This document shows, in pieces, positions 12,001-15,000 of a stretch of DNA of 18,717 nt (position 1 is its first letter; each line of letters begins with the position of its first letter). The stretch comes from a virus (lineage: Duplodnaviria > Heunggongvirae > Uroviricota > Caudoviricetes): positions 1 through 18,717 of IMG/VR virus record IMGVR_UViG_2703718806_000010, one strand, 5' to 3'. A program made the position numbers.

Positions 12001-15000
12001 ATACTGAACCAGATCGTCGACCGCAGAACGGCATCACTGCGCAGTGTCGGGATGCTGACGAACCTGAATCACGCAGCTATGAGCACACTCCTCGGCGAGC
12101 GGGTGATGGACCGTATGACCATGAACGGTGGTCGTTGGGTGAATTTTAACTGGGAGAGCTGGCGATCAAACGTTGGGCGTCAGGGTATGTGAGAATTTTT
12201 GACGAGGTAAATTTTCGATGGAAACCGTATTGCATGCACTGAAAGCGATGGGAAAAGCCAATTCTGTTGAACTGGCGGCGCGGCTTGATATCAGCCGTGA
12301 AGAAGTTCTTAACGAACTGTGGGAACTCAAAAAAAATGGCGTTGTTGATAAAACGGGTCACACCTGGTTTCTGGCTGTCGAAGGTGAATCCGGGGTAACC
12401 GAAGGGCAGGCACTACAATCTGAAGCGCCGGATGTGGTAACCGAAGAGGTCGCTCCAAAAGTTAGCGCTGACATGATGATTGAGTTTATCGCTCAGGAGG
12501 GGGCTAAAACCTGTGAAGAAATAGCGGGTAAGTTCGGAGTTACCACTCGTAAGGTTGCTTCCACTTTGGCGGTAGTAACAGCAACGGGGCGCCTGGTGCG
12601 CGTGTCTATCAAGGGAAAATTCCGTTATAAAGTGCCTGACGTTGAAAACGGCGATTTGAGCGCGTCATCATCGCAGGATGAGAAATCACACCACGAAGCA
12701 GAAAACAGCGCGTCAGGCGACGAACTGAATCGTTCTCCGTTGATGTCAGAGGGCACGGCAAAGGCCTGTACAGATGAGTTTATCCAGGATGTTCCGTCGT
12801 TCACCGAAAAATATGCTGGTGCAGTGACCCTTCCACCTCTACGGGCCGCCAGTCGTGAACTTCGTCGCGCCAAAAAACAGGTCCAGAAGTGGGAGCGTGT
12901 CTGTGCTGCACTACGCGAGCTGAATAAACACCGGGAAATTGTCATGCAGATTACCGATTCATCCAGCAGTATTGCATCGGAAAAGTGATAACTGGAGAGC
13001 TTATGGCAAAAGTATTTACACCCGAAGAGCGGGAAGAACTGAAGGCGCGTATTGTGGAGCTCGTGCGCCTGAATGGTCGGGGAACGTTCAGGCAACTGGC
13101 TACTGAAACCGGAGTCAGCAAGACAGCTGTCGGACGTTTGTCCAGAGAACTGGTTGTCAGTGGCGCTATATTCGACTCAGGTTATGGTTTATTCCCGTCT
13201 GATCAGGCGCGTAAGGACTGGCAAAATGCCCGCAAAAAACTCTCGAGAGCAAAGGCAAAGAAACCGGTTGTCGTTGATCCCGGTCTTATCCGGGCATTAC
13301 CCGATGGGGAAATACGGCGCTACGACAGACGCTACAACACAATTTGTCGCGAGTGCCGTAACAGTGAAGCAATGCAGCGTGTGCTGGCATTCTATAGACG
13401 TTGCGCACAGGCAAATAACAGTCTGCATAGCCGTGTATTGGCTTAACAGGAGCTAAACATGCATTTGAATAAAGAGCATCAATCCATGATGGGCAAGCGC
13501 CAGACAGAAGAGGCTGTGCGCGATCTGGAAAAACTACTCGGCAATTGTGAAACAAAACTGCTTTTCCTGGTTCCGGTTATTCGCCAGAAGGTTGAGGAAA
13601 TTCTTGAAGAAAATGGCATCCCGAAAGAATACATGACGGATGCCATGGAATATTCACTCGAACTGGTACGAATTACTCCTGATCTGACCTGGCTTGATGA
13701 GTATCAACAACAATTTGAGAAAGGCGCAGAAACGTTACTTTCTGCTGCTGATAAAACAGAGCAGAAAACAGAACCATCGGTATTCTGGAATACCGTTGAG
13801 GCTATTGCCAGGAGCAAGATATTTGAGTTTAACAACATCAATCATTCCGGGAGAGACACTAATCAATCATCACATCTTGAGGGGGTGTCCATGCTTCTAG
13901 CTCTGTTGCGAGAGCAAGGCGAATGTCCTCAGTCGACATTGAACGACACTGAGCAATAGTCCATCCGTATTTTCCGGCAAGATAAAGATATATTGCGTCA
14001 AAGCCATAAATAGTCCTTGGATACCCCTCTTTTATAGCCAGAGAGTCCCCGAAGCATTCAAGAAAGTAATTTGAGCGGGCTGTTTCGTAATGAAAATTCC
14101 AGCGAGCCTGATTGAGTTTTTTGTCCATTTATCCTCCATTTATCCTCCATTGTTGCTCTGTTTTGAAAAATGGAGACCTTCGCGCTGCAACGTGAGGTCG
14201 TGTGCCGGACACGGGTAAACATCCGGTATTCAAAATTTAATGTTAACGAATTTTTAATATTGAGGTTATGACGTGAACAACAAAATCAATATTCCTCTCG
14301 AAATTAAAGAAATTAACGAAATCATTGAGGTTACTGATCGCCCCGAGTTTACCCTCATGCGTCGTTATTAAACAGGAACCGACGAACAAAAATACATCAT
14401 GGTTGCAGCATTGGCTGTGATGGCGATAGAAAGGGAGCGGATGGAAAAGGACGTAATGGTTATTCCGGCGAGAAATGATTCACCGGATTTGAGATGGCAG
14501 GAGCCGGAGTGGGATGTGGCAATCCGGTGATTGATATTTCTCTGGGGTAAAGCGCCGCCAGAATGACGCGGTAGTGGAGAGTTAAACGAAGCGGATCTGG
14601 AGTTTTTTCCCTGTAGCACGGGCGAATTTTTTCAGTGTGGCAAATGATGGGCCGCTTATACCTGATGCAAGATTGCTTTCCATTCTGGTGATCGCAGTCG
14701 CTTTTGTTCCCATACGTTCAGCAACTTCAGCCTGGGTTAAGCCTGCTTCTTTTCGTGCTGCCAGCATTTCATCAAGCAGTGCGAACTCGTCGGCGATGGC
14801 GTCGTATTCTGCTTTAAAAGCAGGATCCTCCATCCATTTAGCTGCCATTTCATCGTGTGTCATATTACTGATATCTGTCTGAATATTTAATTCACTTGGC
14901 AATTGGTGCCATGTCATAAATTTTGTCATTAATAATTGCCTTTACAGAGTAAAAGTTATTATAGCTCTTGGCAAAAACAATAACTGTTGGAGAATAATGA

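Follow-up and report, generated by a model that had tools for sequence, protein, structure and literature searches.

A conserved DUF1627-DUF977 gene pair at the ren position of an Stx-type lambdoid prophage, followed by a rare cargo gene

What occupies the ren position in lambdoid prophages that carry a DnaC-like helicase loader, and does it act there as ren does in lambda? The question is raised by IMG/VR virus record IMGVR_UViG_2703718806_000010, of which positions 1 to 18,717 (18,717 nucleotides, hereafter the window) were analyzed. Directly after a DnaC-like loader gene, this DNA carries three rightward genes, here termed A, B and C (12218-13959), which an original prediction made from the sequence alone had grouped as a three-gene accessory operon at a variable cargo site. 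Lambda ren is reportedly non-essential and ren mutants are reportedly sensitive to Rex exclusion, results said to go back to Toothman and Herskowitz in 1980; we know of no mechanism established for the gene since then. We consider it very probable that the window is the early region of a Shiga toxin (Stx)-converting E. coli lambdoid prophage, in which A is a DUF1627/YdaW-family protein, B is a long-form Ren (DUF977), the two form a common pair, and C is an unrelated, rare orphan. The explanation as a whole, this identity together with a Ren-like mechanism, is held tentatively, at somewhat short of an even chance.

The relationship between B and Ren was evident from profile searches. B matched Pfam DUF977 (PF06163) over the complete profile (positions 1-134 of 134; 94.6 bits, cutoff 22.1), and B and lambda Ren both hit PHROG 142 ("Ren-like exclusion protein"), at 3.9e-40 and 1.6e-41, respectively, the match of B covering aa 7-143 of a 153-aa ORF. 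Comparison of the B family with Ren by hhalign aligned the winged helix as well as the C-terminal motif (86% probability, E 4.7e-6), and BLASTP gave 12/20 identities (60%) at Ren aa 73-92 (E 2e-6), bearing out the original recognition of the 147-aa protein as Ren-like. The 17-aa motif noticed at that time, CRECRNSEAMQRVLAFY, corresponds to aa 115-131 and is the end of a longer Ren motif, which is preceded by a basic linker and an N-terminal winged helix (Table 1). The protein is strongly basic (pI 10.4, charge +13.6). Linker and motif are near-invariant across the B family and form its most conserved part, and the motif (PYDRxxNxICxECRxSxxMQRVLAFY) is retained in the most divergent DUF977 proteins, from Salmonella, Citrobacter, Enterobacter and Atlantibacter. 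A zinc site at the CxxC of the motif was considered and is unlikely, because lambda Ren and the divergent DUF977 protein P0357 lack the first Cys. The B family comprises 788 protein clusters and is a small one, with 117 representatives at 50% identity among 1.84 billion proteins. The DUF977 members that were looked up all belong to Enterobacteriaceae (Escherichia, Shigella, Salmonella, Citrobacter, Enterobacter and Atlantibacter); the few matches in gut metagenome-assembled genomes assigned to other phyla (Collinsella, Veillonella, Bacillota) probably stem from contamination with contigs of E. coli phages. A few matches to the DUF977 profile are multi-repeat winged-helix proteins, among them the 581-aa P0284, which has a signal-peptide-like start and eight tandem winged-helix repeats resembling the N-terminal domain of B (E 1.6e-22).

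Variation in B is concentrated in the winged helix. Analysis of loci L004-L083 and L188-L267 revealed about five deeply diverged allele classes of the helix-turn-helix (HTH; aa 28-58), with 16 variants in 7 classes, and the column entropy of the family peaks at aa 31-50. B is under purifying selection (dN/dS 0.10-0.29). The HTH alleles are old, with a dS of ~1 (saturated) and a dN/dS of 0.29, compared to 0.10 for aa 59-131, and an arms-race signature in the recognition helix was rejected on these values. Covariation of the HTH allele with the alleles of O, DnaC or A was likewise rejected, since only background linkage was seen (normalised mutual information 0.24-0.38, as opposed to 0.73-0.89 within B); the alleles have no linkage to any neighbouring segment outside B and reassort independently. 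The allele found in this prophage (TFRQLATETGVSKTAVGRLS...) belongs to one of the rarer classes.

The partner gene, A, encodes a full-length DUF1627 protein (PF07789; profile positions 1-155 of 155, 156.7 bits, cutoff 28.1), which matched phrog_630 at 1.1e-109 and is 56% identical to Rac YdaW (b1361) over 140 aa (E 2e-50). The family spans 1961 protein clusters, assigned to E. coli or Shigella for all those listed. An N-terminal winged helix had been proposed for this protein and was supported both by the AlphaFold2 model of aa 1-46 and by sub-threshold Pfam matches of aa 3-48 to HTH_11, HTH_DeoR and TrmB. A second, canonical and better-defined winged helix lies between acidic disordered linkers, and gave a weak match to phrog_142 (Ren-like, 5.1e-7) and a match to phrog_1687 (MarR, 2e-7); Foldseek searches with A returned only generic winged helices (MarR, Zalpha and ScpB-type) in the PDB, at E ~3e-3 or weaker. 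The protein ends in a basic helix, of which columns 205-239 are near-invariant in the family; phrog_1888 and phrog_29124 also contain this helix, there as a module of its own. The idea that A is an internal duplicate of B or Ren was rejected (hhalign not significant, probability 1-2%). Two database proteins have the appearance of deletion fusions. In P0318, the Ren motif of B is attached to an N-terminal part that has no relationship to B, and in P0350, a segment similar to mid-A sequence (SIPSFTEK) is fused to the second half of B. To judge from these sequences, they suggest frequent rearrangement across the A-B block.

In Enterobacteriaceae prophages, A and B commonly occur together, usually linked, at the end of the replication module. 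Linkage was counted on viral contigs, in sets made up of the best 80 matches each to the window's own A or B protein and thus skewed to close relatives. B lies directly 3' of A in 69 of 77 loci found with A, A lies directly 5' of B in 61 of the 71 loci found with B that carry enough sequence, and a DnaC-like gene precedes A in 59/70. The position is that of lambda ren, between helicase loader and ninB, as had been proposed: in lambda-type loci, with the order O-P-Ren-NinB, P is followed directly by Ren in 80/80, with ninB next in 79/80, and the order in the window and in identical contigs is O, DnaC, A, B ... NinB. B also occurs in other surroundings. It directly follows DnaC, with A absent, in loci L171-L174, and it comes after a single 325-aa initiator in L015 and others and after Rv2179c-like/ExoVIII exonuclease genes in further loci. 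In Salmonella enterica (L179-L181), an Rv2179c-like exonuclease gene and a gene for a 750-aa ExoVIII (RecE-like) lie 5' of the DUF977 gene and a Phage_GPA replication gene lies downstream, so the Ren-like gene is not tied to lambdoid O/P-type modules.

The three packed rightward genes of 256, 147 and 166 aa after the DnaC-like gene were found on the + strand where they had originally been placed. The gaps loader-A, A-B and B-C are 25, 14 and 12 nt, those of the string from the O-like gene through the DnaC-like gene to A-B-C span 6-25 nt, and each of A, B and C has a Shine-Dalgarno sequence. B starts at the ATG at 13003, 5 nt past its GGAGAG, and not at the GTG at 12985, and gene callers on identical public contigs likewise give it 147 aa. 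Initiator, loader, A, B and C are very probably translated from one packed rightward string, presumably the pR transcript. Promoter-like and terminator-like sites were no more numerous than in shuffled sequence. Hidden genes in other frames or on the opposite strand were rejected, as alternative-frame and antisense ORFs of the region gave zero PHROG matches.

Gene C is of a different kind: it opens the variable cargo region and lies outside the conserved A-B pair. It is present in only 2-3 of the 80 loci per set, and A, B and C occur together in 11 of the 2109 E. coli genomes that match. Because of these linkage counts and the rarity of C, the "three-gene operon" resolves into a conserved A-B pair and the first gene of a cargo slot. 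The proposal of a variable cargo site thus holds for C, where the slot begins, and fails for A and B. Just 14 protein clusters represent C among 5.8 billion sequences, all from E. coli; its modules are shuffled among relatives and occur apart in other prophage proteins, and its last 223 bp are common to ORF16 of the exo-xis region of Stx2 phages. No Pfam family matched C above threshold, all its PHROG matches are of unknown function, and its AlphaFold2 model is all-helical and unusable (mean pLDDT 48). The GC content is 50-52% in A and B, 44-47% in C and 28% farther on. The sequence 3' of B is hypervariable, and in Shigella phage POCJ13 it holds a reverse-strand DNA-binding gene and a RelE/ParE pair.

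What the pair does is a matter of weighing close rivals. We regard it as possible, rather than probable, that B has a Ren-like action, being made early, dispensable to the phage and able to keep abortive-infection sensors from being triggered. B would be a basic winged-helix protein that binds intermediates of phage DNA metabolism or the sensor itself, and would thereby keep Rex-type abortive-infection or exclusion systems silent during phage replication, and A, where present, may serve as a second winged-helix partner that blocks toxins in a similar way. The Ren-like role is favoured because B is independent of the type of upstream gene, A is optional, and lambda ren is reportedly non-essential. 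Two published observations bear on the role: a two-hybrid assay detected interaction of the Rex proteins with lambda O and with Ren (bioRxiv 10.1101/2021.04.19.439022), and an overexpression screen for blockers of the retron-Sen2 toxin RcaT recovered, among other prophage genes, ydaW of Rac, the homologue of A (bioRxiv 10.1101/2020.06.22.160242). The explanation as a whole is also favoured by the shared profile and motif of B and Ren, the confidently modelled winged helices and C-terminal helix of A, the ren position, the A-B linkage, the purifying selection on B and the merely background linkage of the HTH allele to those of O, DnaC and A. The data establish family membership, domain architecture, gene linkage and purifying selection; DNA binding, any interaction of A with B and any counter-defence activity are inferred from them. 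In a broader version, which we think unlikely, the DUF1627-DUF977 pair would be a two-protein counter-defence module of enterobacterial temperate phages, shielding replication/recombination intermediates or binding Rex- or retron-type sensors, with the B alleles corresponding to different targets.

Several observations weigh against a Ren-like role. The similarity between B and Ren is remote, pairwise BLAST aligning 20 aa only, and lambda Ren was not identifiable among the 117 matches (50% identity representatives, many of them short fragments) of a DUF977-only profile to 1.84 billion representatives. The recognition-helix alleles are old and under purifying selection, and do not display the recent positive selection expected of an arms race. 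No rexAB-like genes were found beside cI or in the cI-N region of this prophage, and the relevance here of Rex, the only known target of Ren, is therefore in doubt. The RcaT-blocking result comes from overexpression of a truncated YdaW, and literature searches turned up no experimental work with a DUF977 protein or with a full-length DUF1627 protein; on DUF977, DUF1627, LygF and the mechanism of Ren, the ydaW screen match and the Rex-Ren two-hybrid result were the only functional reports found. PADLOC models gave only weak matches to the HTH regions of A and B (E 7e-6 or weaker, CARF/Csa3 HTH parts) and none to C. Finally, Thomason et al. themselves, in the Rex-Ren paper, call ren "likely involved in DNA replication" (bioRxiv 10.1101/2021.04.19.439022).

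This last statement leads to the rival that fares best, namely that A and/or B are replication accessory proteins, which would bind DNA at or near the origin, or the initiator, loader or DnaB, and tune helicase loading or the change from one replication mode to another, Rex resistance in lambda being a side effect. The location directly 3' of the O-like and DnaC-like genes, with short gaps and no terminator above chance, speaks for this, as do the usual DnaC-like neighbour of A, the very basic character of B and the basic winged-helix and helix modules of A. B is, however, found behind four or more distinct sets of upstream genes, among them exonuclease genes, in which case a loader does not lie immediately 5' of B; A is dispensable in DnaC-type modules, and the HTH alleles of B do not follow those of O or DnaC beyond background. 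Moreover, Hayes et al. found Ren to be dispensable for P-lethality or replicative killing (PMC3640518). Searches with A, B and C of Pfam, PHROGs, NCBIfam and PDB sequences gave no match to characterised replication accessory proteins (DnaD/DnaT, lambda P, DnaC etc.), and PDB sequence searches returned nothing under E 0.03; the original prediction had been prepared to yield if all three were such proteins, and none was so assigned. Overall, an accessory function in replication is possible and nearly as likely as the Ren-like role.

It is somewhat less likely, though still a close rival, that A and B are sequence-specific transcription regulators, whose winged helices would read phage or host operators and whose B allele classes would reflect differences in target. 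The variable part of B is exactly the HTH, its alleles are old and under purifying selection, and the Foldseek and Pfam matches of the domains are to regulators of the MarR, ArsR and IclR types; YdaW is also among the predicted transcription factors of E. coli (PMC9308461). Against this, no inverted or operator-like repeats were found in 11400-14300, and conservation in B is highest across the linker and Ren motif rather than in any known domain of the dimerisation or effector kind. Furthermore, the downstream gene content is hypervariable whereas the B alleles are few, and these alleles are unlinked to any nearby segment outside B. That A, B and C form one dedicated anti-exclusion operon carried as variable cargo is very improbable: the genes are contiguous and on the same strand, each with a ribosome-binding site and with no terminator above chance between them, and the exact C protein always lies 3' of A and B where it is found, but the distribution largely refutes this reading, with C so seldom beside A-B, differing from them in GC and built from modules seen in other contexts, and with A and B conserved rather than variable.

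Table 1. Positions of genes, domains and other features in the window
Feature	Position (nt)	Strand	Residues (aa)	Details
Gene A	12218..12988	+		256 aa; DUF1627/YdaW family; acidic overall (pI 5.6)
A, Shine-Dalgarno	12204-12207			GAGG
A, first winged helix/HTH	12218..12355	+	1-46	AlphaFold2 helices 4-11, 16-23, 27-39; pLDDT 74-83
A, acidic disordered linkers			47-79 and 143-203	AlphaFold2 low pLDDT
A, second, canonical winged helix	12455..12643	+	80-142 (model 80-140)	Three helices and two-strand wing; pLDDT 85-90; charge +5
A, C-terminal basic helix	12827..12985	+	204-256	LRRAKxxVQKWERVCAALRELNKHR; AlphaFold2 helix 208-255, pLDDT 78-88
Gene B	13003..13446	+		147 aa; DUF977; long form of lambda Ren family
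B, Shine-Dalgarno	12994-12999			GGAGAG
B, winged helix	13003..13188	+	1-62	Pfam HTH_24, HTH_IclR and Trp_repressor matches (HTH at aa 19-60)
B, variable HTH	13084-13176		28-58	Allele classes
B, basic linker	13189..13296	+	63-98	ARKDWQNARKKLSRAKAKKP...; charge +6.8; absent from lambda Ren
B, C-terminal Ren motif	13297..13395	+	99-131	PDGEIRRYDRRxNxICRECRxSEAMQRVLAFY
B, 17-aa motif	13345-13395		115-131	
Gene C	13459..13959	+		166 aa; acidic; rare mosaic orphan; phrog_25397 5e-114, end to end
C, Shine-Dalgarno	13448-13452			AGGAG
DnaC-like helicase loader	11452..12192	+		Pfam IstB_IS21 2.5e-18; phrog_50 "DnaC-like helicase loader" 2.3e-81
O/DnaD-like initiator	10369-11445			
cI-like	8593-9363	-		
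N-like gene	7925-8269			
Integrase, RecE/Bet-type recombination genes, cro, cII				
phrog_2539 protein	7208-7924	-		238 aa
Convergent ORF	13859..14128	-		89 aa
AT-rich island	14582-15305	-		GC as low as 28%
HTH_3 antitoxin-like protein	14582-14929	-		
ORF called in the AT-rich island	14892-15209	-		105 aa
sRNA-Xcc1 (RF02221) match	15409-15492	+		
sRNA-Xcc1 (RF02221) match	15985-16068	+		
ORF6N ORF	15531-15842			103 aa, truncated
ORF6N ORF	16108-16770			220 aa, full Ant

Profile searches of the window ORFs identified the left arm, with the early region, of a lambdoid Stx-type prophage, with the DnaC-like loader as the final clear replication gene ahead of A. Among phage records, phiSTEC1589-Stx1c and the Shigella phages POCJ13 and 75/02 Stx come closest, aligning with 69-76% of the window at ~96% identity. 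Public E. coli assemblies with an identical gene string continue with ninB, ninE, rusA, ninH, Q and a RIP-domain (Shiga toxin A) gene. Downstream of the pair, the convergent 89-aa ORF overlaps the final 101 bp of C and is the start of a reverse-strand cargo block; it is called by gene callers in some identical assemblies and skipped in others, and gave a weak, sub-threshold NCBIfam match to the ECs1072 family (26 bits, cutoff 70). Relatives of the HTH_3 protein in the AT-rich island align only from residue 23, and the protein may be an orphan antitoxin-type regulator, because POCJ13 carries a RelE/ParE toxin and regulator in the equivalent slot. The 105-aa product called beside it has a signal-peptide-like N-terminus and no family match. 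The two sRNA-Xcc1 matches (79 and 76 bits, gathering score 53) each lie ~40 nt 5' of an ORF6N antirepressor-type ORF, and direct repeats 571-575 bp apart indicate that the sRNA and the 5' part of ant are duplicated. Elsewhere in the window, the 238-aa phrog_2539 protein (function unknown) adjoins the N-like gene on its transcriptionally downstream side and gave weak HNH/endonuclease VII and Lar-like matches.

In terms of gene families the region is already known, and it is unremarkable for Stx and lambdoid prophages, given that RefSeq phage records contain near-identical genes under the names "DUF1627 domain-containing protein" and "Ren-like exclusion protein", and as it stands the window is one more copy of catalogued genes. 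Some part of it is matched by 2109 of 5426 complete E. coli genomes (~40%), and both families occur in many Shiga-toxin phages. If the pair were a counter-defence module, this would account for a feature conserved among lambdoid replication modules and would bear on the spread of Stx phages through strains that harbour other prophages. What is gained is the separation of a conserved A-B pair from a cargo gene, together with a domain map of A and B.

The three proteins stand at different distances from their known counterparts. C matches phrog_25397 throughout, and its C-terminal module matches phrog_1363 (unknown function) and ORF16 of Stx2 phage P13374, which lies in the leftward exo-xis region and has an N-terminal part unlike that of C. 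A is a full-length member of DUF1627, its identity to Rac YdaW extending over the two winged helices, and both genes follow a DnaC-like gene (ydaV in Rac). In contrast to A, the YdaW of K-12 is truncated, with another tail after aa 140 and no B downstream, and it is to this truncated form that the RcaT-blocking result belongs. B is a full-length member of DUF977, named LygF in GenBank, from which it does not differ in structure, and across aa 1-137 it shares 93% identity with the protein found in Shigella phages POCJ13 and 75/02 Stx; its HTH allele is what sets it among the rarer classes. Compared to lambda Ren (NP_040633, 96 aa), B differs in size and layout and belongs to a long-form branch, with a basic insertion of ~30-35 aa and a variable 16-aa tail, and pairwise identity is confined to the 20 aa aligned. 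Lambda Ren, for which alone Rex resistance has been demonstrated genetically, follows a P-type loader; the genes that B comes after are DnaC-like, single-initiator or exonuclease genes. Nevertheless, the two share a PHROG and the slot after the helicase loader and before ninB, both are small and basic with early pR transcription by position, and both combine an N-terminal winged helix with a C-terminal ECRxSxAMxRVLAxY motif.

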